Below, in pieces: positions 2,610 through 58,014 of a stretch of 64,000 bases of DNA; the stretch's first letter is position 1; each line of letters starts with the position of its first letter. The translations under genes and the position numbers were made by a program. The stretch comes from Candidatus Microgenomates bacterium (GTDB lineage Bacteria; Patescibacteriota; Microgenomatia; UBA8517), in the NCBI GenBank assembly GCA_049519355.1, contig JBEKQV010000001.1:220491-284490 (forward strand), in the 5' to 3' direction. The notes below the pieces were generated by a model that ran no database searches, was not told where the DNA came from, and was given only the letters and a program-made list of their open reading frames with translations.

Positions 2610-4334
2610 CTATTGTGCCTGGGTGCCAGTGGTTGGAGTAATTGGTTCCTGCTCCTTCGGGGGTATAGGGGGAAGCATCCTCTTAACAATCAACTTCTTC
2701 GCAGCATTTAAAAAATAGCTTGCCTCATCAATCCTAAGAAGAAGCGATAAAAGGGTATAAACAATTGCTCCAACAAGGAATGTCATTCCGGTCAAAATTA
2801 TTACGTTTCCGGTATAGCGGGTATCAAGCATAAATCTCTGAAACGGAAAGGTTGAAGTGACATCGACTCCATTTAAGAAAGATAATCTCTTTACCCAAAC
2901 GGATTTATCAAAGACCTTAAGAATAAAATACATTGCACCGCCGGAAACGACGGTAGCAATTAGAATCTTAAGAATATGAATCAGGAATTTGGAATTAATC
3001 AGATCCCCAACCTTTTTGTTTATTAAAATCAATAAGGTTACCGCCTCAACAATTGTGCTGGCCGCAAAAGAAGCCGCCAGGGCCCAGACATCAAAGTGGA
3101 ATCCTTTTACCAGTGTAAAATCCCCAACCACCAGAATAAAAAGCCCGACAAACGAAACTATTACCGGAGTCTTTGTGTCCCTGAGGGCAAAAAAAGCCCT
3201 GGCAAGAACCGACATTAATGTTTGAAATACTATAGAGACTGCAAAAACCGAAAGAACGGTTCCTGTTTCAATTGTTGATTCCCAGTCAAAGATTTTTGTT
3301 CCATAAACCAACCGGACCGCAGGAATTCTGAGAGCAATCAGAGCCGCCGAAAGCGGCAGGGTAAAAAACATTGCCTGATAAACCGCAACCAAAAGAATTT
3401 TCCTGTATTCTTTCCAGTTTCCCTCAACATGCGAAAGCATTGGCAGAACCGCCTTAGCTAAAGATGTTCCAAAAAGCGTTACGGGAAGAAGTTGAAGAGA
3501 GTTGGCAAAAGTGTAGTAAGTGTAGGACGCTTGAGAAATAATTGATGAAAGGAAAAGCTCCGTACTTTGACCAATCTGGTCAAAGGCAAGATCAATTACC
3601 CGCGGAAGTGCCAATTTCCCTATACTTTTTACTCCCTCGTCCGGTTTTATGTCTGTCGTAAACTTAAAGCCAAGTTTTCGGGAAAGAGGATACTGAATCA
3701 GAAAATGGGCAAACGCCCCAATTACAACTCCAACAGCCGGCGCGGTTAACCCCAAGTAAGGCGTCAGGACCACCGTACCGAAAATTATTCCCAGGTTATA
3801 GAAAATCGGCGCAAGTGCCGGAACGAGAAACCTTCTGAGAGATTCCAAAACACCCGTTAAAACATAACTGACAACAAAAAAACCTTGAGCCGCAAAAAGG
3901 ATCCTAGCAAGAAACGCAATTTCAGCGGTTCCGGCAGGTCCGTAACCCGGGGCAATAACCGAATAAATTTTAACGGCACCGAATCCGAATATGGCGGCGG
4001 CAAAAAGGAATATCGCAAGGCCTATAGAAACGACTTTACCGGCCAATAGCCAGGCTTTACCTTCACCTTCGCGGAGAGTCTTAGTAAAAACCGGAATAAA
4101 AGCGGATGAAAAAGTTCCAAAAACCAAAATCTGAAATATCGCATCGGGGAGCCTAAATGCCGCAAAAAAAAGTGAAAGTGAATCGGGCGTAAAATAGCCT
4201 GCCAGAACACGATTACTTATCAAACCTAAAACCATCGACACTCCGATCATCAGCATAATGAGGCTGGCGGCGGACAGAACCGAGTTTTGCTGAGAGTTAA
4301 TAATCTTTTTTCCCCGTGCGATTAGATCTTCCAT
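2610..4334 (-). CDS. murJ: Lipid II flippase MurJ (MviN family); the ORF extends to 4379 but the start is more likely the MEDLIARGKK Met
   Basis: A polytopic protein of about 14 TM helices with the MviN/MurJ length and hydrophobicity pattern. The longer ORF would overlap the divergent rpsT start. Confidence 0.75.
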   Translation of the reverse strand: MEDLIARGKKIINSQQNSVLSAASLIMLMIGVSMVLGLISNRVLAGYFTPDSLSLFFAAFRLPDAIFQILVFGTFSSAFIPVFTKTLREGEGKAWLLAGKVVSIGLAIFLFAAAIFGFGAVKIYSVIAPGYGPAGTAEIAFLARILFAAQGFFVVSYVLTGVLESLRRFLVPALAPIFYNLGIIFGTVVLTPYLGLTAPAVGVVIGAFAHFLIQYPLSRKLGFKFTTDIKPDEGVKSIGKLALPRVIDLAFDQIGQSTELFLSSIISQASYTYYTFANSLQLLPVTLFGTSLAKAVLPMLSHVEGNWKEYRKILLVAVYQAMFFTLPLSAALIALRIPAVRLVYGTKIFDWESTIETGTVLSVFAVSIVFQTLMSVLARAFFALRDTKTPVIVSFVGLFILVVGDFTLVKGFHFDVWALAASFAASTIVEAVTLLILINKKVGDLINSKFLIHILKILIATVVSGGAMYFILKVFDKSVWVKRLSFLNGVDVTSTFPFQRFMLDTRYTGNVIILTGMTFLVGAIVYTLLSLLLRIDEASYFLNAAKKLIVKRMLPPIPPKEQEPITPTTGTQAQ

Positions 4335-4363
4335 TTTAGCTTTGTTTCGATTATACTCACTAC

Positions 4364-4627
4364 ATGCCTGTAACGACAACAGCCAAAAGAGCGTTGAGGA
4401 GTTCCAAAAATAAAGAGTTTGTGAACAAGCTTATCTTAAAAAAGCTTGAGGTTGCAGTGAGAATTGCAAAAAGGAGTAAAGGAACCGAAAAAATTTTAGC
4501 TGCAGTTTCGATGGCTGATCGGGCGGCAAAGAAAAAGGTAATCCACAAAAATAAAGCCGCAAGAATTAAATCGCAACTGGCTAAACTCTTACCCAAGATT
4601 TCAAAAAAAGCCACAAAAAAGAATTAG
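4364..4627 (+). CDS. rpsT: 30S ribosomal protein S20
   Basis: 87 aa and very basic. The motif VIHKNKAARIKSQLAKL matches the conserved S20 motif IHKNKAARHKSRL. Confidence 0.85.
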   Translation: MPVTTTAKRALRSSKNKEFVNKLILKKLEVAVRIAKRSKGTEKILAAVSMADRAAKKKVIHKNKAARIKSQLAKLLPKISKKATKKN

Positions 4628-4684
4628 CTTCTTTCACGCTCTGACTTATGCTATATTGATTTAACTTAAGGTTACTGTGCCGTC

Positions 4685-5218
4685 ATGCCCAAAAATAACG
4701 CCATAAATTTATTGCCCGGAGAGGAATTTGAAGTCTCAACTTTAGGCCGCATATTGCACTGGGCCATGGGTACTTTTCGTATTATCGTTATTGTTACCGA
4801 GATGATTGTTATGGGAGCGTTTCTGTCACGTTTTTGGTTAGACGCGCAGAACTCCGATCTTAATGACTCGATTAACATTAAGGTTGCACAAATTTCGGCA
4901 CAAAGTTCAATTGAAAGTCAATTCAGGGGGCTACAAACAAAGTTAGCGATATTCACTCAAATTGCCCAAAACCCAACACCTTCTCAAAAAGTTGCAAATA
5001 TTACGTCAAAAATTCCCCCTGACGTAACCCTTTCAGGTCTTACAATTTCAGATGCCTCAATTGCAATTAACGGAGTTTCAAATTCGGAAGCCGGTATCTC
5101 ACAGTTCATTTCAAATTTGGAGGCGGACAAAACTTTTAAGACAGTAAACTTGGGCCAACTGAATTCGTCTGAAATTAATCCGTCACAAACTAATTTTTCT
5201 ATAAACATTACATACTAA
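4685..5218 (+). CDS. Type IV pilus assembly protein PilN-like
   Basis: N-terminal INLLP motif followed by a single TM helix, as in the PilN (fimbrial assembly) family. Confidence 0.5.
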   Translation: MPKNNAINLLPGEEFEVSTLGRILHWAMGTFRIIVIVTEMIVMGAFLSRFWLDAQNSDLNDSINIKVAQISAQSSIESQFRGLQTKLAIFTQIAQNPTPSQKVANITSKIPPDVTLSGLTISDASIAINGVSNSEAGISQFISNLEADKTFKTVNLGQLNSSEINPSQTNFSINITY

Positions 5219-5222
5219 AACT

Positions 5223-5876
5223 ATGGCACTTGGTTGGAGAGAATCATATTACAGATACAGAGGGTTTTTCCTGAATATCGCCGCCCTATATAAACAAAAG
5301 GCCGATCTACGGGCTTTTTTGGAAATCGTCCTTTCGATAACAACCGTTATTGTTTTTTTGCTGTTCGCCTTAAAACCCACCGCTCTGACTATAATTAATC
5401 TTCTTCAGCAAATAAATGAAAAGAAACAAACACTCGTAGGATTAACCCAAAAGGTAAATGATCTGCAAACAGTAAACGGTATTCTTGACCAAGACCAAAA
5501 TTTAATTCCGTCTATTGATGCGGCGGTTCCAAACGTACCCAACCCCGATATCCTATCGGAGCAAGCGGAGGGGCTCGCATCAAAAGATGCTGTAGAAATA
5601 CTCGGAATTTCCGTCAATCAAGTAACTCTTCTTGGTGCCAACTCCACAAAGAAAATAACCGGGGTAACACCTCTTCCGCAAGGAGCATACGAAATGCCAT
5701 TTTCGCTTAGTATCGAAGGTCCCTACACAAACTTAATTGCTTTCGTTAACGACTTCGAAAATCTGGGGCTGGCATCAAGAATCGACAGTCTCACAATTAG
5801 TTCTTCCGTAACCGATAAAGGAAGAGTTATAGTTGCAGTAATTTCCGGCAGGATACCGTTTTTAGGTAGTCAATAA
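5223..5876 (+). CDS. PilO-like pilus assembly / membrane-anchored coiled-coil protein
   Basis: N-terminal TM helix, then a coiled-coil segment and a periplasmic domain. It sits immediately downstream of the PilN-like gene. Confidence 0.4.
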   Translation: MALGWRESYYRYRGFFLNIAALYKQKADLRAFLEIVLSITTVIVFLLFALKPTALTIINLLQQINEKKQTLVGLTQKVNDLQTVNGILDQDQNLIPSIDAAVPNVPNPDILSEQAEGLASKDAVEILGISVNQVTLLGANSTKKITGVTPLPQGAYEMPFSLSIEGPYTNLIAFVNDFENLGLASRIDSLTISSSVTDKGRVIVAVISGRIPFLGSQ

Positions 5877-5877
5877 T

Positions 5878-6216
5878 ATGGAGAAAGAAAAGTTACCAAA
5901 TCCAATCTTGATTTTAATACTGACACTTATCACCGCCTTTATCTGGGTTTCCTTAAATATCTACCGTGCCATATCTACCAAGCCGACAGCTAGTGTTCCG
6001 CAGGCAATTTCTCAACCTTTGACACCGTTGCTGGATCCAAACGCTATCAAAAAAATTCAATCATCGATTCTTTTAAATAGTTCGCAAATCCCGCAAAATA
6101 TTATCACCCCCGCAGGAACTAATGCGCCGGCCGTTTTACCAACACTTTTACCGGTTGCTACTCCAATTGCCTCGCCAAGTTCATTACCAACCGCCAGCCC
6201 AAGCGCAACACCATGA
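5878..6216 (+). CDS. Small membrane-anchored Pro/Ala-rich protein (hypothetical)
   Basis: An N-terminal TM helix (ILILILTLITAFIWVSL) followed by a low-complexity P/A/S-rich tail. It has the same strand and tight spacing as its neighbours. Confidence 0.3.
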   Translation: MEKEKLPNPILILILTLITAFIWVSLNIYRAISTKPTASVPQAISQPLTPLLDPNAIKKIQSSILLNSSQIPQNIITPAGTNAPAVLPTLLPVATPIASPSSLPTASPSATP

Positions 6217-6240
6217 GGAGACAGTCCGAAACTATAAAAC

Positions 6241-7593
6241 ATGATTAAAAGAAGTAAAATTCCAACAATCTTAGGTATAGTAGTACTTCTTGTAGGAACA
6301 TTTGCGGGAGTATTTTTCCTGGGAAGAAATCAAGTTTTTAGGATCGGCGCCAATCCAACTTCAACTCCAAAAGATGTCAGGGTAAGCAATCTCTCGGATA
6401 TTTCAGCCACCGTTTCCTGGACAACGGGAGGCCAGACATCTGACTTTCTAAACTGGGGAACCACACAAAATGTAGGCAGTATTGAAAATGAAAGCCAAAC
6501 CAATGAAAAGTTCTTCAACCACAGTATTACATTAAGCGGGTTAAAAGCTTCAACCACATATTTTTATAAAATTAACTCTGAAGGAACAACTTTCGATAAT
6601 AACGGCGTTCCCTGGCAATTTACCACAGGGTCGACACTTGCAGCAAATCAAAACTCTATGCCTATTTCAGGCTCTGTCATCACGGCATCAAGCCAACCCT
6701 CAGCCAGAGCAATTGTTTACGTAACGGTAAACGGATACCTTCTTTCGACTTTGACATCTGATTCGGGTAGTTTTGTCATACAACTGGCACAAGTGCGCAC
6801 TTCGGACCTAACTTCCTATGCCGTAGTTGATCCCGCCACTACCCTTTTGGAAATATCCGTAGAAGCCGAAGACGGCGAAACTTCTTCAGCTCAAATATTT
6901 CCCCAATCCGCCAATCCAATTCCCACCCTTATCCTGGGGCAAACCCAAGATTACAGAAGTCTACAGCCGCAACAATCCGGCCAAAATCCCAGCGCCAATT
7001 TAAATTTGCCGGCCACGGCAACTCAAGAATCAAAAATCAACATTGGCACAACCTCGGCAACCCCCGCTCCAACAAGTGTAATTCTGGAAAGCTTAACCGA
7101 GGGAGAAACAGTAACAAGCAACCAACCCCAATTCTTTGGTAAGGGTCCGGGAGGGGAAACGATTACGGTCACCGTTCACTCACAGGATGTAGTTTCGGGA
7201 ACCGTCAAAATTCCTACCAATGGCTCCTGGAGTTGGAGTCCTCCTTCAACCCTTTCCGCGGGATCTCATTCAATTACAATTTCCTGGATAGACACCTCCG
7301 GAATCACAAGAACATTAACCCGGGATTTTATTGTTCAAGCGGGTGAGGCGCCAGCTTTTGTTGCCTCCCCCTCGGGCACTCCAATTTCCACATCAACCAT
7401 CTCTCCAAGTCCTGTCCCGACTCTTGTGCCTGTTTCTACGGCAACTCCAACCGCAATTCCTACTGAAATATCCTCTCCAACCGCGGAACCTGTACCAGTT
7501 ACTGGTGACTTGACTCCCACGTTCCTACTATCTATCATGGGATTAGCAATTCTTGCTTTCAGCGTTTTTGTGTGGAGATTTTCAGAAAAATAA
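6241..7593 (+). CDS. Cell-surface protein with an N-terminal signal anchor, a fibronectin type III-like domain, a Pro/Thr-rich stalk and a C-terminal TM anchor
   Basis: The FN3-like segment reads VRVSNLSDISATVSWTTGG...STTYFYKI. A long PT-rich linker follows. The C-terminus reads VPVTGD, then a hydrophobic helix, then WRFSEK, which looks like a sorting signal. Confidence 0.5.
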   Translation: MIKRSKIPTILGIVVLLVGTFAGVFFLGRNQVFRIGANPTSTPKDVRVSNLSDISATVSWTTGGQTSDFLNWGTTQNVGSIENESQTNEKFFNHSITLSGLKASTTYFYKINSEGTTFDNNGVPWQFTTGSTLAANQNSMPISGSVITASSQPSARAIVYVTVNGYLLSTLTSDSGSFVIQLAQVRTSDLTSYAVVDPATTLLEISVEAEDGETSSAQIFPQSANPIPTLILGQTQDYRSLQPQQSGQNPSANLNLPATATQESKINIGTTSATPAPTSVILESLTEGETVTSNQPQFFGKGPGGETITVTVHSQDVVSGTVKIPTNGSWSWSPPSTLSAGSHSITISWIDTSGITRTLTRDFIVQAGEAPAFVASPSGTPISTSTISPSPVPTLVPVSTATPTAIPTEISSPTAEPVPVTGDLTPTFLLSIMGLAILAFSVFVWRFSEK

Positions 7594-7599
7594 TTTTAC

Positions 7600-9117
7600 A
7601 TGCCCAATCAAAACGACCCTACCCAAAACCCAACCCCAGTAAATCCTGTTCCTCCGGTTATCTCTCCCCAGGCAGACCTCCCGCCGCTTCCTCCCGCATT
7701 TCAAAATCTTAATAATCCAACACCTCCTGTCGCGGCCTCGGAAAAAGAAAATACATCACCTCCTTCCGACAACGGTTCGGCAGCCCCTCCCGATATTTCT
7801 TCCGTTACCTCAAAACCCAAGAAAAAATTCGGGGGAGGAAGAATAATTGCAACGATATTGGGATTATTCCTCTTGGTTGGGGGAGTTGGCGCGGGAATAG
7901 TTTTAACTCAGCAACCCCAGCTTCTTCAACAAAAAGCATCCACTATTTGTCCTGTCACGGCTCCAGATCTTTGTAAGTGTTACAATTGTGACGGCAGTGT
8001 CAGAGGAAGTGGTTGCCTTCCTGCTTCTGAATCCTGCGATGCATACTGTGGCGGAAGTAGTACTCCAACAAACTGCAACAGTCAAACCTGTACACCAAAT
8101 ACCAGTACAAAATCGTGTACAGAATCAAATGGTTGCGCAGGAACTGAAACCTGTAACTCATCAGGAACTGGCTATGGAAGCTGTGTACAAAATGATTCCA
8201 GTTGTGGAAAATCCTCAGGAGGGGCTTCTTGTAGCGGAGGAATCGCCGATGGAAAAATCGGCTGCCTGGATAGTGCCACGGGGGTTGTCTGCAATAACGG
8301 TGCGTTCAGTCAAACTAAACAGTATTGTCCTCAAGGAACAAAGTGTGTAAATGGTTCCAGTCCGGGCAGTTTTTGTTCAGCTTGTTCACCCGCTACTAGT
8401 TGTTGTTTCGCTAATTCGACCGTTCCGTCCTCACCAGTCTGTACGGTAAGTCATAAGTATCTATGCTCGAACGGAAGCTGTATCGAAAACGACACCAACG
8501 GAACTTTCACATCAAATACTTGTGGAGGAACCTGTAGTGGAACTCCGAACCCGAACGTAGCAGACTGCGGAAGTGCGGCAGTCGGCGGGGCCTGCACAAC
8601 TGGAAGCGATTGCCATTGCCAGGGTGGGGACGCTTGCACAAGTCTTTTGTGTCAGCCGGATCAGCATCAATCCTGTCTTAGCCAAAGTAGAGCCTGGTGT
8701 GTAAACATGACAGGAAAGGGCATGACCTGTTGTGCTGCAGGATATGTCTGCGCCGTGGGTGTTAACGGATGTGTCTCTGGACCTTCGGCTCCGCCATCCA
8801 GCCCGCCGAATAATCCCACTGCTCCTTCCTGTGTGGCTGTCACGGCATACACCCCAACATGGACCGCTCTGACTTCTGCCCAACTTTCGGCACTAACCAC
8901 TGGGGCACAGATCAATTTCTGTGTTAGCGGTTCAAACGGTACGTTCGATCAGGCAGACTTCAAGATCAACTCAACAGTTGAGGCGGCAACTACTACCAAG
9001 AGGCCGAGTTCTAGTGATTTCTGCCAGTTATACACAATTCAGGCATCAGACACAACTATATCGGTTTCGGCGAAGATTCACGATACTACAAAGGGCTGGG
9101 TAGGAGAAAGTTTTTAA
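7600..9117 (+). CDS. Cysteine-rich extracellular protein with a Pro-rich cytoplasmic N-terminus and a single TM anchor
   Basis: The N-terminus is PTPVNPVPPVISP..., then one TM helix (IIATILGLFLLVGGVGAGIVL). The remaining roughly 380 aa are dominated by C/G/S/T with many CxxC and CxxxC spacings. Confidence 0.5.
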   Translation: MPNQNDPTQNPTPVNPVPPVISPQADLPPLPPAFQNLNNPTPPVAASEKENTSPPSDNGSAAPPDISSVTSKPKKKFGGGRIIATILGLFLLVGGVGAGIVLTQQPQLLQQKASTICPVTAPDLCKCYNCDGSVRGSGCLPASESCDAYCGGSSTPTNCNSQTCTPNTSTKSCTESNGCAGTETCNSSGTGYGSCVQNDSSCGKSSGGASCSGGIADGKIGCLDSATGVVCNNGAFSQTKQYCPQGTKCVNGSSPGSFCSACSPATSCCFANSTVPSSPVCTVSHKYLCSNGSCIENDTNGTFTSNTCGGTCSGTPNPNVADCGSAAVGGACTTGSDCHCQGGDACTSLLCQPDQHQSCLSQSRAWCVNMTGKGMTCCAAGYVCAVGVNGCVSGPSAPPSSPPNNPTAPSCVAVTAYTPTWTALTSAQLSALTTGAQINFCVSGSNGTFDQADFKINSTVEAATTTKRPSSSDFCQLYTIQASDTTISVSAKIHDTTKGWVGESF

Positions 9118-9126
9118 TTATAAATT

Positions 9127-9708
9127 ATGAAAAATTTTATGAAAGGTAAGTTGGGAACAGTTGTAGTTTTGATTTTCACCGTTATCTTAGCCGGAGTTGC
9201 CGTATTCACAGCCATTAGACTTTATCAGCTCAGACAGCAACCGGTTGCGCCAAATGTTCCCTCAAGTATTCCCCACGCTGCAGGAGTAACTTCCTGCACA
9301 CTTACTTTTACATTGGCTACGGCGACATCGACTGCAACCGCAACTGCAACAGCTACCGCAACTGCCACGGCAACAGCCACTGCTACAGCTACGGCAACAG
9401 CCACACCCACAGGAACTCCAGGACCAACCGGAACTCCTAATACCTGTGGAGGAACTTGCGGCAGCAACATTAACTGCGCAAGCGGCTACTATTGTAATAC
9501 GAGTGTTGGCTTTTGCCGAAATCCTTCTTGCCCAAGCCAGACAGACTGTAATTGTCCGGGTTCAACACCAACTCCTACTGGAACTAGTCACCCGACACCA
9601 ACCCCAACAGCTCCCGCTCTTCCCAGCTCTGGGACGGATTGGCCAACAATTGCAGGGGCAGGACTTGGTATATTTGTTGTAATCGGCTCGCTTCTCTTGG
9701 CTCTTTAG
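9127..9708 (+). CDS. Cysteine-rich surface protein with an (Ala-Thr)n low-complexity tract and a C-terminal hydrophobic anchor
   Basis: An N-terminal TM helix is followed by about 17 Ala-Thr dipeptides. A Cys-rich module (TCGGTCGSNINCASGYYCNTSVGFCRNPSCPSQTDCNCPG) shares the CGGTC motif with the upstream Cys-rich gene. The C-terminus is LPSSG plus a TM helix. Confidence 0.5.
   Translation: MKNFMKGKLGTVVVLIFTVILAGVAVFTAIRLYQLRQQPVAPNVPSSIPHAAGVTSCTLTFTLATATSTATATATATATATATATATATATATPTGTPGPTGTPNTCGGTCGSNINCASGYYCNTSVGFCRNPSCPSQTDCNCPGSTPTPTGTSHPTPTPTAPALPSSGTDWPTIAGAGLGIFVVIGSLLLAL
9304..9415 (+). repeat. Hexanucleotide tandem repeat (GCN-ACN)n encoding (Ala-Thr)n inside the CDS at 9127..9708
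   Basis: Directly visible as acggcgacatcgactgcaaccgcaactgcaacagctaccgca... It is in frame and lies within a coding region. Confidence 0.8.
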
Positions 9709-9717
9709 TTCTAAGTT

Positions 9718-10005
9718 GTGGACACACTAATTTCCTTAACAAAACCTCTCCTAAATTTTATCCACGCAAATTTTGTAAATATCCTTGTGGCAATAGGTAT
9801 TATTATAGTTTCCTATTTGGGTTTTCTGGCAACAACAGCTTCTCTCAGAAAATTGAAGGTAAAAGTTTACTCATATTACCCGTTCGACCAATTTTTCCCA
9901 CAAGCCGGAAAATGGTCTATCATTTATTTCTTAATAGTAATTCTTTTACTCGGAGCTCTTATATATTTCCTGGGGAAGGGAGGATTCTATTTAAGCCCAG
10001 CTTAA
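9718..10005 (+). CDS. Small two-TM membrane protein (hypothetical)
   Basis: A 95-aa ORF with two hydrophobic helices and no recognisable domain. Confidence 0.3.
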   Translation: MDTLISLTKPLLNFIHANFVNILVAIGIIIVSYLGFLATTASLRKLKVKVYSYYPFDQFFPQAGKWSIIYFLIVILLLGALIYFLGKGGFYLSPA

Positions 10006-10020
10006 GGTCAAGTTTTGTTT

Positions 10021-12468
10021 TTATCTCCAGCTTGAAAACCAGTAATAACTTTTATCCAGCCAAAGGGGAATGGAAAGCCCCGCCCAGTGAGGATAAAAAT
10101 AAATAAATAAAAGTCCCCCGGCAACAAAAAATGGGATTATCAACTTCGGAGTTCTTCTTAAAATATATCCTGTTGCAATCGTCAAAAACGGAATCGCAGG
10201 AAGATAGTGGTACAAAAACATAATCCGGGGAGAAAGCGCCCAGGGAACAAACATTACTAAATAACTGAAAACCACAAGACCAAGTTTTTTATTACGTTCA
10301 ACAAAAGCAACCATCGCGGAGACCACAACCGATGCAAATCCGAACCAAAAAACCAGCGGATTGCCAAAGGCATAAATTCTTGCAACCATTCCGCTTACCT
10401 CATCGCTTGTGTAAAGATAAATCGGCCGGATTAAAAATGGCCAGCTCCACCAAAGAGAGCTATACGGATGAGTAGCCCGAAGTCCAGTGTGATACCACCA
10501 CATTTGCTCCTGCATTCCCCACCAAACTGTAAGATTGTGACCGGTTAAAAACATGTCCGTATAGCTTAGGAGATAAACCGCAGCCGGCAAAATTAAAAAC
10601 CAAAGAATCGACTTGGTAAATTTCTTTTTCCTCCATAACCATAAAACTCCCAAAATCGGAATCGCCCAAACGGCCGACCATTTTGAAGCAAGAGCAAGAC
10701 CCAAAGATATCGCCGACCAGAAGTCGTGCTTCTTCATAAAAAGATAAATTGATAAAAGAGCAAAGAAAAGAATATAGCTATCGTTCATTCCAATTCTGCT
10801 CATAACCAGTGCAAGCCCATCAAGAGAAAATATTCCCGCGGACAGAAGTCCTATTGCCTCATCGTCAAAAATTTCTTTTCCCAAAAAATAAACCAAAAAC
10901 ACCGACCCGACTCCCAAAAGCGCACCCGGGATTCTCCAGCCAAATGAATTTTGCCCGAATATTGTCATTCCCAAAACCATTCCCAGTTTGGCCAAAGGCG
11001 GATGTGTCCACTCATATGCAAAACCGGGTGGGGGCGTGTTCCACCATTCCCAGGCCTTAGCCGCATCGGGGCCCATAATCACTTTTGCGGTAAAGGCGTG
11101 ATAGACCTCATCAAAATACATTGTGGAAGGGGAACTTAAATTAAAAACTCGGGTAATAAACGCAAAAGCCAATACGATAATCAGAAAAATCCTTGCCTTT
11201 TGTTTAGACAGGTGAATCTTGGGAATAACTTCTTCAGTTTTAACAGTCGGCTTGTTTCTACTGTCAATAAAACGATTTATAGCTGCAAACATTTTGCTCC
11301 ATTCCGATTTTAGGCCTTTATAAGCTAGGTAAAAAATATAAATTACAAAAGAAATATTTACTACCGCAAAAAATTTAACAACCATATATGAAAAAACTTC
11401 TTTGAAGTTGTCCGTTATCCAAATATAAGAGTAATAAAGATTAGCGCTATATGTCACGGAAAAACCAATGTACGGAATTAAAAAAAGAGGATTTTCAACC
11501 GCAATTATGGCCAAAGGCGCAAAAACCGGTAAAAGATGCCTTTCGTGCATTCTTGTAAAAAACATAAAACTTGATGCGAAAACAAAAGCAATCAAGTAAT
11601 AAGGTGCGTTTTTTATCTTTGATAACTTAAAACAAAGAAGTACCGTCACGCCAAGAACCACCAGATATCCGAATAGTTGAAAATAAATATTGTCGGGCTT
11701 CCAAAATCCGAAAAGGCTCCAAAAGTTGAAAGCGTTGAGTGATGTATACGGATATTGATTTAAGGAAATCCCCAGCCGCGAAAAAATAAATCCGATTAAG
11801 TTTCCAGAATTCCAAAACGGCACAAAACCGATTATGAAAACCGCAAGTGAAGTTAATGAATAAATTAAAAACTTAGAAAACTTCCATTTATCCCTTATCA
11901 TCACAAACAAAATCACCGGTAAAATAAATGCCGTTTGCGGTTTAATTAGAGTCCCCAAAGAAAGGATTGCCGCTGAAGCCAAATAAGAAGTATCCATAAG
12001 ATACACCGCCAAAACCGAAGTTAAGGCAGTTAGTGAGTCTACCTGCCCCCAAAGAGCTGAGTTTGCAAGGATAGCCGGATTAAATATGTAAATGCAGGCC
12101 CCGATTATGCCCCACCTCTCACCCTTGGATTTTTTGAGAATCTTGTAAATGAAAAGGCCCGTCAATAGATCCGAAAGTGTTGCCGGAATTTTATATAAAA
12201 CCACCTGAGGGAAAATGCCAAGAACGTTGATCTTTCCGAGTAACCATAAAAAATAAAGATACCCGGGTAGATAGTCACTCCAACTGTTATAAAAACTTTT
12301 GAGTCCATAATTAGCCAGGGATGTACTCCAGGCAATAAAGGTTCCCTGATCAAGGTGAAGTGTTCCAAAAAAAGAAAGAATAAATCTGACGATGAGACCG
12401 ATAACCAAAACGTATACAATATTGGGTATGAAGAAATTTCTGGGTTTGGCTTTTATTTTTTCTTTCAT
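10021..12468 (-). CDS. Large polytopic GT-C glycosyltransferase; the C-terminal half is PMT/GT39-like with a DE(V)YHA motif and the N-terminal half is a second GT-C-like membrane domain
   Basis: 815 aa. The motif FDEVYHAFTAKVIMG matches the DE motif of the first loop in protein O-mannosyltransferase (GT39) and ArnT-like enzymes. More than 20 predicted TM helices. Confidence 0.6.
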   Translation of the reverse strand: MKEKIKAKPRNFFIPNIVYVLVIGLIVRFILSFFGTLHLDQGTFIAWSTSLANYGLKSFYNSWSDYLPGYLYFLWLLGKINVLGIFPQVVLYKIPATLSDLLTGLFIYKILKKSKGERWGIIGACIYIFNPAILANSALWGQVDSLTALTSVLAVYLMDTSYLASAAILSLGTLIKPQTAFILPVILFVMIRDKWKFSKFLIYSLTSLAVFIIGFVPFWNSGNLIGFIFSRLGISLNQYPYTSLNAFNFWSLFGFWKPDNIYFQLFGYLVVLGVTVLLCFKLSKIKNAPYYLIAFVFASSFMFFTRMHERHLLPVFAPLAIIAVENPLFLIPYIGFSVTYSANLYYSYIWITDNFKEVFSYMVVKFFAVVNISFVIYIFYLAYKGLKSEWSKMFAAINRFIDSRNKPTVKTEEVIPKIHLSKQKARIFLIIVLAFAFITRVFNLSSPSTMYFDEVYHAFTAKVIMGPDAAKAWEWWNTPPPGFAYEWTHPPLAKLGMVLGMTIFGQNSFGWRIPGALLGVGSVFLVYFLGKEIFDDEAIGLLSAGIFSLDGLALVMSRIGMNDSYILFFALLSIYLFMKKHDFWSAISLGLALASKWSAVWAIPILGVLWLWRKKKFTKSILWFLILPAAVYLLSYTDMFLTGHNLTVWWGMQEQMWWYHTGLRATHPYSSLWWSWPFLIRPIYLYTSDEVSGMVARIYAFGNPLVFWFGFASVVVSAMVAFVERNKKLGLVVFSYLVMFVPWALSPRIMFLYHYLPAIPFLTIATGYILRRTPKLIIPFFVAGGLLFIYFYPHWAGLSIPLWLDKSYYWFSSWR

Positions 12469-13573
12469 TGTCTATTTACTTACTTCGGCAGGACGAACCC
12501 CTTATGACTATTTTACTCGACTTTCAGATTCTTTTTTACAGGGAAAGTTGTACCTGACCCAAAATCCGCCATGGCTTAACGAACTGATTCCGGCAGGACC
12601 AAACAAATTTTACGTAGTTTATCCCCCTATGCCGGCAATCTTGGCCATGCCTTTCAGATTAATTTTTGGGCAACTGTTTGAACAGCAATATCTGGCTCAA
12701 CTCCTAGGGGCCGGAATTGTGATTCTGACCATGTGTATATCATTTTCTATCAAAAAGGACAAAAAACTCGCCATTTGGGCTGGGTTTTTGGCGGGTTTCG
12801 GAACTATTATCTGGTTTTTGGCGGCAACCGGTTCGGCATGGTATCTTAGCCAAGTTAGCGCCGCTTTTTTTATGAGCGCCGCAATACTCGAATCTCTAAA
12901 TAAAAAAAGACCAATCTTAATTGGCGTACTTCTTGGCGCGGCATATCTAAGCAGAATTGAGATAATTTTATCTCTACCCTTTTTTCTATACATTCTTTGG
13001 GACAAAAATTGGTTAAAAAACTATTTAAAAATGGCAATGGGCCTTGCTCCTTTTATTTTCACCGACTTTCTTTATAACTTTTTAAGGTTTGGTGTCGTTT
13101 GGGACAAATCTTACATTTTAATTCCGGGGGTACTTAACGAAAGCTGGTATCAAAACGGACTTTTCAGTCCACTTAATATCCCCAATCATTTAAAAATAAT
13201 ATTTCTGGCCCTTCCAAAATTTATTCCCCAATTTCCTTATATCGAACCTTCGTGGGCAGGGCTCGCCATTTGGATTACGACACCCGCTTTTATTTATGCA
13301 TTAATAGCCAACATCAAAGAAAAGATTATACGGTTTTCCTGGCTTTCAATACTCTTAATTTCACTTTTGATTTTCAGTCATGGTACCACCGGCTTCTCCC
13401 AGTTCGGTTACAGATTTGCCGTAGATTTTTATCCGATTTTGATATTCCTAACAATAAAAGGCGCGGCCAAAACCGGACTAAAGTGGCACCACTATCTACT
13501 CCTAACTCTTTCAATTCTGGTTAACCTTTGGGGTGTAACTTGGATTAATAAATTTGGCTGGGTGAGTTTTTAA
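12428..13573 (+). CDS. Integral membrane GT-C-fold glycosyltransferase-like protein (start taken at MKKFLG; the ORF opens at 12392)
   Basis: About 380 aa and polytopic. The first extracytoplasmic loop (VVYPPMPAILAMPF) is typical of mannosyl/glucosyl GT-C transferases. The gene is divergent from the 10021..12468 gene with overlapping 5' ends. Confidence 0.45.
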   Translation: MKKFLGLAFIFSFIVYLLTSAGRTPYDYFTRLSDSFLQGKLYLTQNPPWLNELIPAGPNKFYVVYPPMPAILAMPFRLIFGQLFEQQYLAQLLGAGIVILTMCISFSIKKDKKLAIWAGFLAGFGTIIWFLAATGSAWYLSQVSAAFFMSAAILESLNKKRPILIGVLLGAAYLSRIEIILSLPFFLYILWDKNWLKNYLKMAMGLAPFIFTDFLYNFLRFGVVWDKSYILIPGVLNESWYQNGLFSPLNIPNHLKIIFLALPKFIPQFPYIEPSWAGLAIWITTPAFIYALIANIKEKIIRFSWLSILLISLLIFSHGTTGFSQFGYRFAVDFYPILIFLTIKGAAKTGLKWHHYLLLTLSILVNLWGVTWINKFGWVSF

Positions 13574-13575
13574 TA

Positions 13576-15063
13576 ATGAAAAGAAACATAATCTTTCTTG
13601 TAATTCTTCCCCTTACGGCTATTGGATTATTACTCCGTGTGTGGAATTTGAAATCCAACCCTCCGGAACTCTTTAGTGACGAAATTAGAGGAATCCTTTC
13701 CGCAAAAAGCATGATTGAAAGCGGCAAAGATATCAATGGAAAACCCGAACTTTATTTCTACAACCGGCTCGAACTTTACCCACCGGTCTACGGATACTTA
13801 GCTGCCTTAACTTCATATGCCATCGGTAATGACACGTTGGCGGTCCGTCTGCCTGCGGCAATTTCAGGAACTATTACAATAGCCCTTGTCTTCTACCTAA
13901 CCCTGTTGTTATTTAAGAACACTATTGTTGCCGCAACTTCCGCGTTTGTCATTACCTTTGCTCCCTGGGCAATACACTTCAGCCGTGTTGGCTGGGAACC
14001 GGGGATTTTCCTTCCGTTTATTATTCTTCCCATAATTTTATTCTTCCTTTTTTTGCATAAGAAGAAGAACATTTTTCTATTTTTATCTTTTATTTTCTTT
14101 GCTTTTGCGGTTTACACGACAAGATCTTCGGAATTCCTCTCGCCTTTATTTATGGTCATTTTACTCGCTCTCAACTTCCGCGAAATTAAGAAACACTACG
14201 TCCCGGTAGTTGCGAGTCTTGCAATTTTTTCTATTTTGATCATTCCTTACCTGTATATTTCCGCCACTCAACCTCTAATGCATGAAAGAGCGGATAGGAT
14301 TTTTACGTTCGCTGGCGGTGTTAATAAAACCACACTAGGGATTTTTGTCAGAAATTATTATTCTCACCTAACCCCTTCATTTCTATTTATAAACGGCGAT
14401 CCAAATCTTAGACAAGGGGCAGGAACTGGAGTTTTATTTTGGAGTTTCCTTCCGTTAATTATTCTTGGACTCGTTGAAACCTTCAAAAACATACCAAAAA
14501 AAGAATATAAATTTTTACTTTTGTGGTTCTTGGTTTTCCCTTTGGGAGGAAGTTTAACAAATGACGGAGTTCCTCACGCAACCAGAACGCTTATCGGCGT
14601 TGTAGCTTTTGCAATTCTTGCGGGACTCGGGGCAAGATTAATTTGGGAAAAAGGCCAAAAACTCTTCATAATATTCTCAATCATTTTATTCATTGCTTTC
14701 TCCCTCGAACTTTCAAGATTTTTGACAATTTATTTTAAAGATTATCCCATAAATTCCCAGGCTTGGTGGGAGTATGGACAAAGCCAAATATTTTCAATAA
14801 TTAAAACCAACACAAAAGGAGGTGAAAGTCTTTGTCTTTTAAACACCGATTACTGGCACGAAGAAACTTTGACAAAATATTACTTGGGCATAAATAATAA
14901 CTATAAAATTATTTACGACCCCAATAATCCCGACTGTTTTTCATCTCAAATCCTGGTTCTAAAACCCCAAGTTACTCCGCCTTTGGAATATGTTTCCATT
15001 AAAACAGTTAACAGCCTTGAGGGAAACCCAATTTGGACCGTTTACTCTTCATTGAAGAACTGA
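13576..15063 (+). CDS. ArnT/PMT-family (GT39/GT83) polyprenyl-phosphate-sugar dependent glycosyltransferase
   Basis: The N-terminus reads LLRVWNLKSNPPELFSDEIRGILSAKSM..., which is the ArnT/PMT signature DE-like loop plus a YPP motif. Polytopic. Confidence 0.65.
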   Translation: MKRNIIFLVILPLTAIGLLLRVWNLKSNPPELFSDEIRGILSAKSMIESGKDINGKPELYFYNRLELYPPVYGYLAALTSYAIGNDTLAVRLPAAISGTITIALVFYLTLLLFKNTIVAATSAFVITFAPWAIHFSRVGWEPGIFLPFIILPIILFFLFLHKKKNIFLFLSFIFFAFAVYTTRSSEFLSPLFMVILLALNFREIKKHYVPVVASLAIFSILIIPYLYISATQPLMHERADRIFTFAGGVNKTTLGIFVRNYYSHLTPSFLFINGDPNLRQGAGTGVLFWSFLPLIILGLVETFKNIPKKEYKFLLLWFLVFPLGGSLTNDGVPHATRTLIGVVAFAILAGLGARLIWEKGQKLFIIFSIILFIAFSLELSRFLTIYFKDYPINSQAWWEYGQSQIFSIIKTNTKGGESLCLLNTDYWHEETLTKYYLGINNNYKIIYDPNNPDCFSSQILVLKPQVTPPLEYVSIKTVNSLEGNPIWTVYSSLKN

Positions 15064-16209
15064 TAAAAACCATTGATTAATATCTTGCCATTTTCCGTTT
15101 CCGGCTTTTGGAATAAACACCGACTGTTGATCATAAACCGCATTTACCGGCGGGTTAATCAAAAGTTCCTGGGGGATAAGGTACTGCTTTATGTCTTTGT
15201 CATCCTCCAAGGCCTTTCTTGCCAATATCCCGGCTGTCGGCAAATTTAAGTCCGTCTCAACATATTTTTTGATAACTCCCAACATTGCCAGATCAATCTT
15301 CGGTGAAAGAAAAACTTTCGGCTGCATAATTTTAGTTTTAATTGCATCAATAACCAGTTGTTGTCGTGCCTCTCTTGCAATATCCGTTCCTTCAATCCCT
15401 GCGGCGTGGCGGGAGCGGACAAACTCCAAAGCTGTATCACCATTCATTGTCTGAGAACCGGCATTAAAGCTAACTGTCTGATACCTGCAGGCAAGAGTCG
15501 GGTCACCACCGCAAGTATCGTTTTCCTTACCGGCAACCGGATAAAGATTATCCGTAAAACTATTTTGAACATTTACCTGAATGCCGCCGAGGGCATCAAC
15601 AATATCCTTAAAGGCCGAAAAATCAATTACTACTCCATATTGAATCGGCTCTCCGACAACTTCAGCAGTAATTGTTTTTGCAAAACCAATTTTTCCTCCA
15701 GGATAACCCGAGTTATTAAAATATGGAGTAGTTTGATCGCCCCAATAGTAAGCCGAGTTTATTTTCGCGCGGATATCGGGAATCCAAAGATCTCTTGGAA
15801 TTGAAACAATCACCAAATCCGGCTTTGTCAGGGAAACCGAAACCAGAATCATCGTGTCCGTTAAATCTGGGCTATCTTCGGGCCTTGCCCCACCGGCCTT
15901 TCCCATTACTAAAATATTCACCCGGCCATTTGTTGAAGCTATTTGTCCTTCCGGAACAGCCAAAAAATTATAAGCGGATTTTATGTATGTAGAAAGACCA
16001 ACGGCACGCGCCCAAATACAAAATGAAAACAACAAACCCAAAACAACTACCAAAATAACCCATTTTAACCAAGCGTGTTTATTTTTCTTTAGAGGAGTAT
16101 TTTCCAACACTTCAGGTGTCTTTTGCGTAATAGAAATTCCTTCAGAATTTATAGCACCACGTTCCCGTCCCCTGGAATGTGTTGTAGAATTATCAGACAT
16201 GTCAGACAT
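15049..16209 (-). CDS. LytR-CpsA-Psr (LCP) family cell-wall glycopolymer ligase
   Basis: An N-terminal TM helix, then NILVMGKAGGARPEDSPDLTDTMILVSVSL, which is the LCP core motif. About 386 aa. Confidence 0.8.
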   Translation of the reverse strand: MSDMSDNSTTHSRGRERGAINSEGISITQKTPEVLENTPLKKNKHAWLKWVILVVVLGLLFSFCIWARAVGLSTYIKSAYNFLAVPEGQIASTNGRVNILVMGKAGGARPEDSPDLTDTMILVSVSLTKPDLVIVSIPRDLWIPDIRAKINSAYYWGDQTTPYFNNSGYPGGKIGFAKTITAEVVGEPIQYGVVIDFSAFKDIVDALGGIQVNVQNSFTDNLYPVAGKENDTCGGDPTLACRYQTVSFNAGSQTMNGDTALEFVRSRHAAGIEGTDIAREARQQLVIDAIKTKIMQPKVFLSPKIDLAMLGVIKKYVETDLNLPTAGILARKALEDDKDIKQYLIPQELLINPPVNAVYDQQSVFIPKAGNGKWQDINQWFLSVLQ

Positions 16210-34267: not shown

Positions 34268-35164
34268 TTAAGGTATGAGAGCGGGAGTCGCGCTCGGAGT
34301 CGATATTAAGGGTTGAGGAATTTTTTGAGCAAACTGGCCTGAAACCCAACCTGTTACTCCACCTGGGACTGCCGATGATGAGGCTTCATATTGAATTTCC
34401 AGCCAACCGGTTGCAGCATCTATATCAATATACGGGTAAACACTTCCGGGCTTGGCTTCACCTATTTCTTTTCCCGCCGCCCCGGGAAGGGTTCTCACTC
34501 TTAAAAAGCCAGTAGGAGTATTTCCTATCTGAACATAAGGTTCCGGGGTTGGCGACGGTGATGGGTTCGATAGAGAAGATTCATCCGACGAAACGCCTTT
34601 TGCCAGCTTTGCAAAGACGGTAAGTCTATAACCAACCAAGGTCTTAATTGACATAACTCTGTCGGCATATCCGGGGGCTTTAACCGTGATCTGGTGCTGA
34701 GCCGGTGAAATTGTAGATGTCTCATAGGGGGCAAAACCTTGTGTTACACCGTCAACCGAAACCTGGGCATTATCCGGCGTAGAAACAACGACCATGCCGG
34801 CAGTAGTCCCTGCTTGCGTTTCAAATGAAATAACGTCTCCCGACGAAGCATCCTCGCTACTTCCGAATTCTCTTCGTACAACCGTCTGTATTTCGGAGAC
34901 CAATGTTATTTGAGTCTCATAAGGGGTTAGTGTAGTGTTCGTGGCATTTGGCACAAGTTTTAGAGTAATTTGTCCTGCTTTATAAAAACCTTGATACGGG
35001 GTAGTACCTACTAAATTTCCGTTAATATAAACGCTTGCGGGAGGACTGGTGTCAACCAAAATTCCGCCGGGTTTGGGCTTAAAATAACCGATTAAAAAAA
35101 GTGCTGCTGCAACAAGTGAGGCCAAAGAAACAATTGAAATTAGTATTATATTGACAGTCTTCAT
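34268..35164 (-). CDS. PEGA-domain surface protein (start taken at MKTVNIILI; the ORF opens at 35263)
   Basis: An N-terminal signal anchor and two PEGA-like repeats (VYINGNLVGTTPYQ and VSVDGVTQGFAPYE), then a C-terminal beta-rich domain. Confidence 0.6.
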   Translation of the reverse strand: MKTVNIILISIVSLASLVAAALFLIGYFKPKPGGILVDTSPPASVYINGNLVGTTPYQGFYKAGQITLKLVPNATNTTLTPYETQITLVSEIQTVVRREFGSSEDASSGDVISFETQAGTTAGMVVVSTPDNAQVSVDGVTQGFAPYETSTISPAQHQITVKAPGYADRVMSIKTLVGYRLTVFAKLAKGVSSDESSLSNPSPSPTPEPYVQIGNTPTGFLRVRTLPGAAGKEIGEAKPGSVYPYIDIDAATGWLEIQYEASSSAVPGGVTGWVSGQFAQKIPQPLISTPSATPALIP

Positions 35165-35265
35165 TGTGTCCGAGTTTAACACATGGCAAGTAAAGCTTGC
35201 CACTCGGCTAAATACAAGCCTCGTGGTACGCAAAGCTGACACTGCGTGATAAAATACAAGCATCC

Positions 35266-56485: not shown

Positions 56486-57601
56486 ATGAAATTACAAATA
56501 CTTCAGGAGAATTTGGAAAAGGCCGTAAGCATAACATCCCGCTTTGCCAGTGTAAAAGCACAACTTCCCATTTTGGGGAACATTCTTCTTTCAACACAAA
56601 AAAGTAAAATCTACATTTCCTCAACCAATTTGGAGATTTCAGCGTCGGTTCAAGTTGGAGCAAAAATAGACGAGGAAGGAGAAATAAGTATTCCTTCAAA
56701 AGTTATTTCTGAGCTGGTCGCGAACTTGCCCAAAGAGACCATATCTCTAACAGCAGAAAAGGAACAACTGAAAATTTCCGCTTCAGGTTTTTCATCGACC
56801 ATTCTGGGAATGAACTCGTCGGATTTTCCGAAAGTGATCAACTCATTAAGTAAAGAAAAGGCAATAGTTTTTTCTCAGGAAGAGTTGTCTAAGGCTTTGG
56901 GACAGGTTGTTTTTGCCACATCGACCGACGAAACTAGGCCGATTTTGACCGGGGTTCTTTTTTTGTTTGGAAAAAATTCGATATCGCTTGTGGCAACCGA
57001 CGGTTTCAGACTTTCGCGCAAGACGTTTTTGGTTAAAGAGGTTAAAGGAAGTGAAAATAGTGTAGTTATTCCGAAGGGTGTTTTGGGTGAGCTTTTAAGA
57101 ACGGTTTCGGAAAACGGAGAGATTCTTTTCGGGTTACAGGAGAAAGAAAAACAAGTTGTATTCAGTCTTGGAGATGTTGTGTTAACCTCAAGGCTTTTGG
57201 AAGGGGAGTATCCTGATTTTGAGAAAATCATTCCTAAGTCTTCCAACATAAAAATTCTTTTAGATAAAGAGGAATTAACAAGAGCGGTTAAACTCGCCTC
57301 TATTTTTGCAAGAGAATCTGCAAACATAGTTAAATTACAAATACTAAAAGACGAAATTAAAGTTTCCGCCGAAAGTTCCTCTGCAGGAAGTCAGGAGACG
57401 AGCGTTGAGGCAAAGATAGAATCCTCACAAAAAGATTTTGAGATAGCCTTTAATTACAGATTTTTAGAAGACTTTTTGCATTCCGTTCAAGGAGAAGAAG
57501 TAAAAATGGAATTTTCTGGGGTTTCTTCTGCTGGAGTGTTTACGGACACCTCTGACAATTCTTATCTTCATTTAATAATGCCGGTAAAAGTTCAAAGCTG
57601 A
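56486..57601 (+). CDS. dnaN: DNA polymerase III beta subunit (sliding clamp)
   Basis: 371 aa. It begins MKLQILQENLEKAVSITSRF and shows a three-domain clamp pattern. It sits immediately downstream of dnaA. Confidence 0.9.
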   Translation: MKLQILQENLEKAVSITSRFASVKAQLPILGNILLSTQKSKIYISSTNLEISASVQVGAKIDEEGEISIPSKVISELVANLPKETISLTAEKEQLKISASGFSSTILGMNSSDFPKVINSLSKEKAIVFSQEELSKALGQVVFATSTDETRPILTGVLFLFGKNSISLVATDGFRLSRKTFLVKEVKGSENSVVIPKGVLGELLRTVSENGEILFGLQEKEKQVVFSLGDVVLTSRLLEGEYPDFEKIIPKSSNIKILLDKEELTRAVKLASIFARESANIVKLQILKDEIKVSAESSSAGSQETSVEAKIESSQKDFEIAFNYRFLEDFLHSVQGEEVKMEFSGVSSAGVFTDTSDNSYLHLIMPVKVQS

Positions 57602-58014
57602 TTTCCGTTTAAATCAACCACATAATATTTGACGGGTGCCGGAACGCCAATTGCTTGCAAATCGAAAACGGCACCGGCAACAATACTTTTTTCCTGGGTG
57701 GCTGTCGCAGGAACTTTTAACCGGATTCTGAAAGACTGAGTGTTAAAATCGTAGACGGCTTCGTAGTTTGTTGTTTCCAGAGGAAGTTTTGAATACCATG
57801 GGTATTGTGTATTAAGAATCGTTAGAGCCTGACCATACTTGAGATCGTCAGGTAGCGCCGTACTGGTAACCAGGGGTGGAGTTGTTTCTGGAGTGGGGGA
57901 TGGTGTTAGAGAAGCGACCGGCTTCGGTGTGGGGTGTTGCAAGACAACAACCACAAGAATGATGATACAAATTAATGAAACAGCACCGAGCACAATTATA
58001 AGTTTTTTCTTCAT
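57592..58014 (-). CDS. Small signal-anchored secreted protein (hypothetical), last gene of the T4SS-like operon (start taken at MKKKLIIV)
   Basis: An N-terminal TM/signal (LIIVLGAVSLICIIILVVVVL) then a PT-rich linker and a roughly 90-aa beta-rich domain. It overlaps the 3' end of dnaN convergently. Confidence 0.4.
   Translation of the reverse strand: MKKKLIIVLGAVSLICIIILVVVVLQHPTPKPVASLTPSPTPETTPPLVTSTALPDDLKYGQALTILNTQYPWYSKLPLETTNYEAVYDFNTQSFRIRLKVPATATQEKSIVAGAVFDLQAIGVPAPVKYYVVDLNGNQL

Follow-up and report, generated by a model that had tools for sequence, protein, structure and literature searches.

A six-gene locus headed by pilN and pilO

We analysed a 64-kb stretch of DNA (the window) from a Candidatus Microgenomates bacterium (Woesebacteria-type) of the candidate phyla radiation (CPR), an ultra-small organism that has not been cultivated, in which six plus-strand open reading frames (ORFs) lie at positions 4685–9708 with intergenic gaps of 1–24 nt (Table 1). 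The first two are predicted to encode PilN and PilO, the alignment pair of the type IV pilus (T4P) machine, and the other four (ORF3–ORF6) encode envelope proteins. All six products are single-pass proteins with a cytoplasmic N-terminus (N-in) and extracytoplasmic domains. Coordinates were taken from the ORF listing of the window and are exactly those of an earlier interpretation made from this DNA alone (the sequence-only reading), which had described six one-strand genes here, among them a PilN-like and a PilO-like gene, and had named hidden Markov model searches for these two families as the test that could refute it.

Relatives of PilN were found by scanning one genome per species, giving 155 in total, and the best 80 loci of these 155 were compared; nearly all were from Woesebacteria/Microgenomates, together with one Blackburnbacteria genome. 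The same DNA is present in several peat metagenomes, with positions 4685–10005 being 100% identical in nine of ten metagenome contigs and a single-base difference in the other. Public records already carry a PilN annotation, ORF1 being 100% identical to the NCBI entry [quoted passage not shown], and the occurrence of T4P in CPR bacteria is likewise known.

Table 1. Genes of the locus, followed by its two flanking plus-strand neighbours, with the spacing to the next gene across the compared loci
Gene	Product	Position	Strand	Length (aa)	Basis	Median gap to next gene (nt)	Loci with overlap
pilN (ORF1)	PilN	4685..5218	+	177	PF05137	2	13/75
pilO (ORF2, O2)	PilO	5223..5876	+	217	Ortholog profile; PF04350 at family level; AlphaFold2 and Foldseek	-1	38/75
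ORF3	Small single-pass (N-in) protein	5878..6216	+	112	Topology, alignment; no Pfam/NCBIfam family	-4	37/69
ORF4	Surface stalk protein	6241..7593	+	450	Pfam domains; C-terminal signal	10.5	12/60
ORF5	Single-pass (N-in) protein	7600..9117	+	505	Topology, AlphaFold2 model; no Pfam/NCBIfam family	5	7/61
ORF6		9127..9708	+	193	Conserved N-terminal helix; LPxSG-type C-terminus	6.5	
ORF7	Small hydrophobic membrane protein	9718..10005	+	95	phmmer orthologs		
rpsT	Ribosomal protein S20	4364..4627	+		Pfam Ribosomal_S20p on the identical gene in locus L001	70	0/79

The first two genes encode PilN and PilO

Judged by its sequence, ORF1 is a true PilN. It scored 43.8 bits against PF05137 (cut-off 22.8), this family was carried by all 120 homologs among the matches listed, and the sole significant match of a PilN ortholog profile in the PDB was M. 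xanthus PilN (3jc8_N, E = 7.6e-6). The protein consists of a short cytoplasmic N-terminus, a membrane helix (aa 31–51), a coiled coil and the PilN domain (aa 105–175). The INLLP motif picked out by the sequence-only reading is found at aa 7–11 (nt 4703–4717), and I7-N8-L9-L10-P11 together with most of the membrane helix is invariant among 24 orthologs of 58–73% identity. In Thermus and Pseudomonas structures the N-terminal motif of PilN fills the binding pocket of PilM (PMC5805733). INLLP would be this PilM-binding motif, therefore a PilM is to be expected in the organism, outside this locus. The helix and juxtamembrane stretch of PilN (nt 4775–4837) are more conserved than the periplasmic domain, and within the helix T38-E39 is invariant and membrane-embedded, which suggests a contact with an intramembrane partner.

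ORF2 alone remained below threshold, both for the PilO family PF04350 (16.1 bits, cut-off 22) and for DivIC (17.9, cut-off 28.9), the latter matching the helix/coiled-coil part only. Yet PF04350 was matched by 54 of 61 ORF2 orthologs at E ≤ 0.1 (best 1.9e-11), and a profile built from these 61 orthologs found M. xanthus PilO first in the PDB (3jc8_O, E = 2e-8), with P. aeruginosa PilO (5uvr, 2rjz) as the next relevant matches. An AlphaFold2 model (mean pLDDT 79.7) likewise placed PilO 3jc8_O (1.5e-6) and 2rjz (2.6e-4) at the top of a Foldseek search of the PDB, followed by Amuc_1100 and 5uvr. As profile, family-level Pfam and structural tests agree, we assign ORF2 as a true PilO on the basis of sequence and model; the outcome of both family searches thus favours the earlier reading.

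The predicted layout of ORF2 is a cytoplasmic N-terminal segment, a membrane helix (aa 33–52), a coiled-coil helix to aa 94 (modelled as helix 27–94) and a core of two alpha-beta-beta units at aa 108–213 (H108–121/E125–131/E156–165 and H168–179/E186–197/E200–213). This core has the PilO fold, which rules out FtsB/DivIC as the identity of ORF2. Amuc_1100 of Akkermansia muciniphila (6lad, 6kny) came out as structurally close to the model (Foldseek E of 6.6e-4 to 3e-3, after the PilO structures), but sequence identity was only 8–12% and the match reflects the common alpha-beta-beta core. Furthermore, 31 of the 61 orthologs matched T2SSM_b, the type II secretion system (T2SS) protein M-b model. 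Public names of the orthologs vary between hypothetical, PilO, FtsB and FtsL. In the window pilO adjoins pilN with a gap of 4 nt.

Four envelope proteins follow the pilus genes

ORF3 was described from sequence alone as a small, anchored, Pro-rich protein, and indeed contains 17 Pro, no Cys and a membrane helix (aa 9–29). This helix and a short extracytoplasmic segment form a conserved core of ~66 aa, in which W23 is invariant and P7, T16, T19 and P50 are near-invariant, followed by a variable Pro/Ser/Thr-rich tail that is missing in some lineages. ORF3 was found in 75 loci. It occupies the position of PilP, which in diderms uses an unstructured region to bind PilNO and forms a bridge to the secretin (PMC5805733). 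ORF3 does not qualify as a PilP itself: the N-terminal helix of ORF3 is plain, there is no lipobox or other lipoprotein signal, no folded C-terminal HR domain (a beta-sandwich in PilP) and no family match. By analogy of gene position, and of a tail that is unstructured as is the part of PilP that binds PilNO, ORF3 may nevertheless be a counterpart of that protein.

ORF4 begins with a signal/anchor helix (aa 7–28) and a conserved F-R-I-G-A, which lead into a chain of an FN3-like domain (aa 41–124), a CarboxypepD_reg-like domain from around aa 142, an Ig-like Big_13 domain (aa 291–362) and a Pro/Thr linker. Pur_ac_phosph_N (34.1, cut-off 30) and Big_13 (35, cut-off 27) both exceeded their Pfam cut-offs, in agreement with the FN3-domain surface protein that had been proposed, while fn3 itself reached 18.5 (cut-off 25) and the CarboxypepD_reg-like match was weak. 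Across orthologs (n = 69) these domains recur frequently (fn3, n = 63; Pur_ac_phosph_N, n = 63; Big_13, n = 61; CarboxypepD_reg, n = 49). The protein ends in VPVTG (aa 418–422, nt 7492–7506), a helix (aa 427–445) and a basic tail, RFSEK, and the ends of its orthologs are conserved as [VLIT]P-x-[TS]-G-x3-PT, a hydrophobic helix and K/R. The window copy scored 15.6 against LPXTG_anchor (TIGR01167), with a cut-off of 15.9; among 65 ortholog tails, 35 matched EF0750_LPXTG and 20 matched LPXTG_anchor.

ORF6 starts with a strongly conserved helix (aa 9–30) that carries an RLYQLRQ..VAPNVP segment. The Thr/Cys-rich middle is variable and consists of a (Thr-Ala)n run (aa 69–91), a module of nine Cys and a Pro/Thr linker. 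At the DNA level the run is an imperfect 6/12/24-nt tandem repeat (9319–9404), which did not vary in length among ten metagenome contigs of the same population; with the region 100% identical in nine of the ten, there was no sign of phase variation. At the C-terminus, LPSSG (aa 165–169, nt 9619–9633) is followed by 24 residues ending in LLLAL, and this arrangement, LP-x-[S/A/V]-G plus 24 (rarely 25) residues, is kept in nearly all orthologs. LPXTG_anchor matched 20 and EF0750_LPXTG 11 of 66 ortholog tails, the window copy matching nothing. When the tails of ORF4 and ORF6 were compared with the sorting-signal models of NCBIfam, sortase-type models were best, and not those for exosortase, archaeosortase or rhombosortase. 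Only these two proteins carry such a C-terminal signal in the window. From these sequence features we conclude that ORF4 and ORF6 end in predicted sortase-type (LPXTG-like) signals and that the locus defines a putative lineage-specific version of this signal.

ORF5 has the most unusual architecture, with a cytoplasmic Pro-rich tail (aa 1–80, 7600–7839) preceding the membrane helix (aa 81–102). The tail is variable except for the conserved motifs DLPPLPPxFQ (aa 26–35), GSAAPPD and PKKKFGGG (aa 73–80), which look like docking peptides for a cytoplasmic partner. Outside the membrane, a hypervariable Cys-rich stalk (aa 113–395) is followed by a conserved C-terminal beta-sandwich of ~100 aa (aa 405–505); conservation is found in the tail motifs, the membrane helix and the terminal domain. 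The AlphaFold2 model exceeded a pLDDT of 90 for a Cys-rich subdomain (aa 321–395) and for the beta-sandwich, which is a generic Ig/FN3/CBM-like fold with no specific relative in the PDB (best Foldseek E 0.067). An exhaustive profile search of 1.84 billion proteins recovered 609 representatives of the ORF5 family (50% identity) at E ≤ 1e-30.

Both ORF5 and ORF6 had been called extremely Cys-rich. This holds for ORF5, with 43 Cys (8.5%), 40 of them within residues 113–395, and fits ORF6 less well (4.7%). Cys counts among ORF5 orthologs range from 1 to 48, with the Cys-rich stretch mostly replaced by gaps in the others, so Cys richness is a trait of the lineage and not of the family. The description of the surface proteins as anchored was accurate, but anchoring is uneven: ORF4 and ORF6 have LPXTG-like signals, whereas ORF5 has no C-terminal sorting signal and its anchor is the N-terminal membrane helix alone.

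The ORF5–ORF6 pair is tandemly duplicated in three loci (L017, L074 and L097), and in locus L092 (12973–16055) the ORF5 and ORF6 proteins have a common internal extracytoplasmic domain, which suggests that the two evolve and act as a pair. Within the window, BLASTP detected only weak similarity between ORF5 and ORF6 (common Cys module, E 0.097) and between ORF4 and ORF5 (similar anchors, E 0.05), and we do not claim homology in either case. ORF3–ORF6 were ruled out as atypical pilins, having no class III signal; in ORF6, the Gly that precedes the helix lacks conservation and Glu5 is missing. In public calls on the same DNA (loci L001 and L002; 7600–9708), one pipeline breaks ORF5 into fragments, and another pipeline calls an antisense 81-aa ORF in place of ORF6.

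Gene order and spacing are conserved

Almost without exception, loci of sufficient length to be assessed had the gene order murJ(-) / rpsT-pilN-pilO-ORF3-ORF4-ORF5-ORF6-(ORF7) / PMT(-). Orthologs of all six genes were present in this order in about 60–75 of the 80 species-level genomes, and their recurrence shows that the six are real genes and not chance ORFs. Conservation among relatives, which the sequence-only reading had left to be checked, therefore extends to some 80 species-level genomes. The most divergent locus, with 37% PilN identity, still possessed ORF5- and ORF6-like genes, though these were missed by phmmer. Starting instead from three ORF5 homologs picked independently of PilN, all three were located just downstream of pilN-pilO. 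The spacing of the six genes across ~80 species (Table 1) is tight enough for predicted translational coupling.

The junction between rpsT and pilN is a recurrent insertion point (L084:4358–10001 and L075:2088–3001). The L084 insert contains IS21-type transposase genes (IstA/IstB-like) and other ORFs, and that of L075 a 312-aa ORF that is unrelated and lies on the opposite strand; this content rules out a hidden pilM in either insert.

Other pilus genes and sortase genes near the locus

No pilM, pilB/T/C, pilD or prepilin gene was detected in the window, or in the 10 kb past its 3' end. The claim that pilM, pilB/T and prepilin genes are missing from the window thus stands after searches of ORFs, of motifs in any frame and of ATPases. 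A class III signal (short basic leader to Gly, hydrophobic helix, Glu at +5) was not found in any frame of the window. The gene upstream of pilN, both in the window and in 79 relatives' loci, is rpsT and not pilM. Across 94 loci, no PilT/PilB-like ATPase was detected within 10 kb of pilN with a PilT sequence as query; searches of the window, and of each of these loci to a distance of 10 kb, found no sortase-like (TLxTC-type) ORF.

The position relative to pilin genes in relatives was a further check named by the sequence-only reading; the locus was never beside pilin or pilM/B/T/C genes in the 94 loci. For this reason the locus is a detached piece of an appendage system and not a self-contained appendage locus. 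Of the surface-appendage or adhesion locus proposed by the sequence-only reading, the pilus-assembly part is therefore retained, an adhesive role may follow from the Ig-like domains and anchors, and self-containment is not retained.

Published surveys describe T4P components including PilM/N/O as widespread in CPR bacteria and PilQ as absent, sortase as almost universal among Microgenomates, and disulfide enzymes of the MdbA/VKOR type as enriched in CPR (PMC6744442). For a closed Microgenomates genome with a single T4P locus, PilA, minor pilins, PilD, B, T, C and M are listed, and PilN/O are not (PMC7143001). In Saccharibacteria, pilM, pilN and pilO lie together inside pilus loci (PMC11623550).

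Neighbouring genes in the window

In the window rpsT ends 57 nt upstream of pilN, and it precedes pilN in 79 loci; it is probably a conserved upstream neighbour outside the functional unit. At the other end ORF7, probably a two-helix membrane protein with a weak match to DUF2232 (18.4, cut-off 27.8), was found by phmmer in 27 loci, all closer relatives, and its membership of the operon is uncertain. The operon is flanked on the opposite strand by murJ on one side and by a PMT-family glycosyltransferase on the other. Directly downstream (10021–16209), synteny is kept through a PMT glycosyltransferase, a 393-aa polytopic membrane protein without a family match, a PMT_2 glycosyltransferase and an LCP (LytR_cpsA_psr) enzyme; the enzymes of this stretch might serve to glycosylate the linkers rich in Thr and Pro, or to join polymers to the wall. 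A promoter and terminator scan of 4200–10300 was uninformative, with counts not above those of shuffled sequences.

Elsewhere the window contains grpE, hrcA, murJ, several PMT-like glycosyltransferases, the LCP enzyme, uvrD, groEL, tRNA synthetases and dnaA/dnaN, a gene content as is usual for CPR genomes. At the 3' end of the window, a type IV secretion cluster of the Gram-positive type adjoins dnaN/dnaA (57592–63972, and locus L095) and includes PrgI-like and TraC-like genes, a VirB4/TraG P-loop ATPase (60363–62198) and a 775-aa polytopic protein, with several T4SS_pilin (PF18895) genes past the 3' end of the window. Further uncharacterised envelope proteins are encoded on the minus strand, namely a large DUF4012 protein (877 aa, 48394–51027) and a PEGA/SH3-domain membrane protein (34268–35263).

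Comparison with known systems

Our analysis places the first two genes alongside the PilMNOP(Q) systems of type IVa pili (P. aeruginosa and M. xanthus; 3jc8, 2rjz, 5uvr), to whose PilN and PilO they are homologous by family model, profile and fold. They have in common the short cytoplasmic N-terminus, single membrane helix, coiled coil and alpha-beta-beta core, a putative PilM-binding INLLP, and the order pilN-pilO followed by further envelope components. The locus differs from these systems, however, in having rpsT upstream in place of pilM, in lacking PilP (no lipoprotein signal and no HR beta-domain) and the PilQ secretin, and in that the downstream genes encode unrelated single-pass and LPXTG-like anchored proteins. 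A parallel in envelope type is offered by the T4P loci of the CPR lineage Saccharibacteria (TM7x) and of Gram-positive bacteria (Clostridium), which are outer-membrane-less and have PilM/N/O and PilB/C/T without a secretin (PMC11623550, PMC6744442); there, however, pilM-pilN-pilO lie within the pilus locus, whereas here pilN-pilO stand apart from it and share an operon with four conserved envelope genes.

The surface proteins resemble sortase-anchored LPXTG proteins of monoderms in their C-terminal motif and hydrophobic helix (with a basic tail in ORF4), Ig-like stalks and Pro/Thr linkers. They differ in the motif itself ([VLIT]PxTG or LPx[SAV]G, followed four residues on by a PT that is conserved), in scores at or below the curated cut-off, in the fixed 24-residue tail of ORF6 without a basic end, and in that no locus has a sortase gene within 10 kb. 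Our literature search found no description of a detached pilN-pilO pair, of its operon with ORF3–ORF6, of the ORF3, ORF5 and ORF6 families or of this sorting signal.

A candidate envelope extension of the T4P machine

The reading that we favour, with a probability of roughly 0.4, is that of a conserved operon of Woesebacteria/Microgenomates in which the T4P alignment pair PilN-PilO is combined with four lineage-specific envelope proteins that extend the machine to the cell wall. Here, INLLP of PilN would dock PilM, encoded elsewhere with pilB/T/C, and PilN-PilO heterodimers would form the membrane-proximal ring of the machine. ORF3–ORF6 would extend this ring outward and tie it to the wall, with ORF3 as a small adaptor in the membrane whose tail is unstructured, ORF4 and ORF6 as Ig-domain stalks linked covalently to the wall, and ORF5 as a stalk that is rooted in the membrane, ends in the conserved beta-sandwich and has its peptide tail in the cytoplasm. 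The four proteins might thereby do for a cell without an outer membrane what PilP, PilQ and TsaP do in diderms, aligning the machine across the envelope, anchoring it to the wall and perhaps lining its exit point or presenting binding domains there. The functional link between ORF3–ORF6 and pili is one that we infer.

Several observations weigh against this proposal. No T4P-related family or fold was detected in ORF3–ORF6 by Pfam, NCBIfam or Foldseek, and the C-terminus of ORF6 has no basic tail, unlike a canonical sortase signal. Four loci have no ORF4 and four others an ORF4 without its anchor, the gap between ORF4 and ORF5 exceeds 100 nt in 14 of 60 loci, and in locus L020 other genes are located between the two (the 2-kb insert holds unrelated genes). 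Moreover, the whole 30-kb neighbourhood (infB...murJ, PMT, LCP, uvrD) is also syntenic, therefore part of the conservation of the operon reflects general genome stability.

This synteny is also one of the arguments for a somewhat unlikely alternative, that the genes are merely co-transcribed, with PilN-PilO serving the pilus and ORF3–ORF6 being independent adhesins or S-layer-associated/host-contact proteins under a common promoter in a compact genome. It would fit the resemblance of ORF4–ORF6 to typical monoderm surface proteins (Ig-like domains, Pro/Thr linkers and LPXTG-like tails), the hypervariable stalks and the ORF5–ORF6 duplication, as typical of host- or environment-facing proteins, and the presence of PMT glycosyltransferases and an LCP enzyme just downstream. 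However, coupled synthesis is suggested by the stop/start overlaps of pilO, ORF3 and ORF4, seen in about half of 70 species, and the linkage persists down to 37% PilN identity. Nor would free-standing adhesins be expected to have N-terminal anchors and, in ORF5, cytoplasmic motifs that are more conserved than their exposed domains.

Those N-terminal anchors also bear on a second alternative, which we judge unlikely, in which a T2SS-like export module uses a T4P piston to push folded proteins through the wall and ORF4–ORF6 are dedicated cargo encoded beside the PilN-PilO that recognise them. C. perfringens BsaC provides a precedent, ORF4–ORF6 are large, multi-domain and extracytoplasmic, with ORF5 and ORF6 disulfide-rich, and some PilO orthologs also match models of T2SS protein M. 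ORF3–ORF6 nevertheless retain conserved N-terminal membrane helices, and the 80-aa cytoplasmic tail makes ORF5 a resident membrane protein and not a released cargo. PilN and PilO are not known to have a cargo-recognition element.

It is very unlikely that the pair are repurposed paralogues without a pilus role, acting as a scaffold for wall synthesis or division (near murJ) or for sorting of the neighbouring anchored proteins, as might be read from their detachment from every other T4P gene in 94 loci, weak DivIC matches in 41 of 61 PilO orthologs (helix/coiled-coil part), JGI labels of FtsB or FtsL on some of these orthologs and the wall-related neighbours murJ, PMT and LCP, because INLLP is invariant and is the PilM-binding motif of solved complexes (PMC5805733), the PilO core has the PilO fold and not the short C-terminus of FtsB/DivIC, the DivIC matches are below cut-off and limited to membrane helix and coiled coil, and a Microgenomates T4P locus reported with PilM and without PilN/O leaves room for a detached pair (PMC7143001).

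Returning to the proposed extension of the machine to the wall, a bolder form of it, which we regard as doubtful, is that the PilN-PilO ring nucleates an undescribed wall-anchored, envelope-spanning assembly that replaces PilP-PilQ-TsaP, with ORF3 as adaptor, sortase-linked ORF4 and ORF6 stalks, and ORF5 providing a cytoplasmic signalling or docking tail. If true, an “outer half” of a T4P machine would thereby be defined for the first time in CPR bacteria or in a monoderm-type envelope.

Implications for CPR bacteria

Public annotation of these genes is inconsistent, with varying names for PilO orthologs and frequent mis-calling of ORF5 and ORF6. The class-wide operon couples PilN-PilO to four uncharacterised anchored envelope proteins. 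T4P are thought to be central to the attachment of CPR bacteria to host cells and to the exploitation of these hosts, and the operon provides concrete candidates for how the T4P machine may cross, and be fixed in, an envelope without an outer membrane or secretin.

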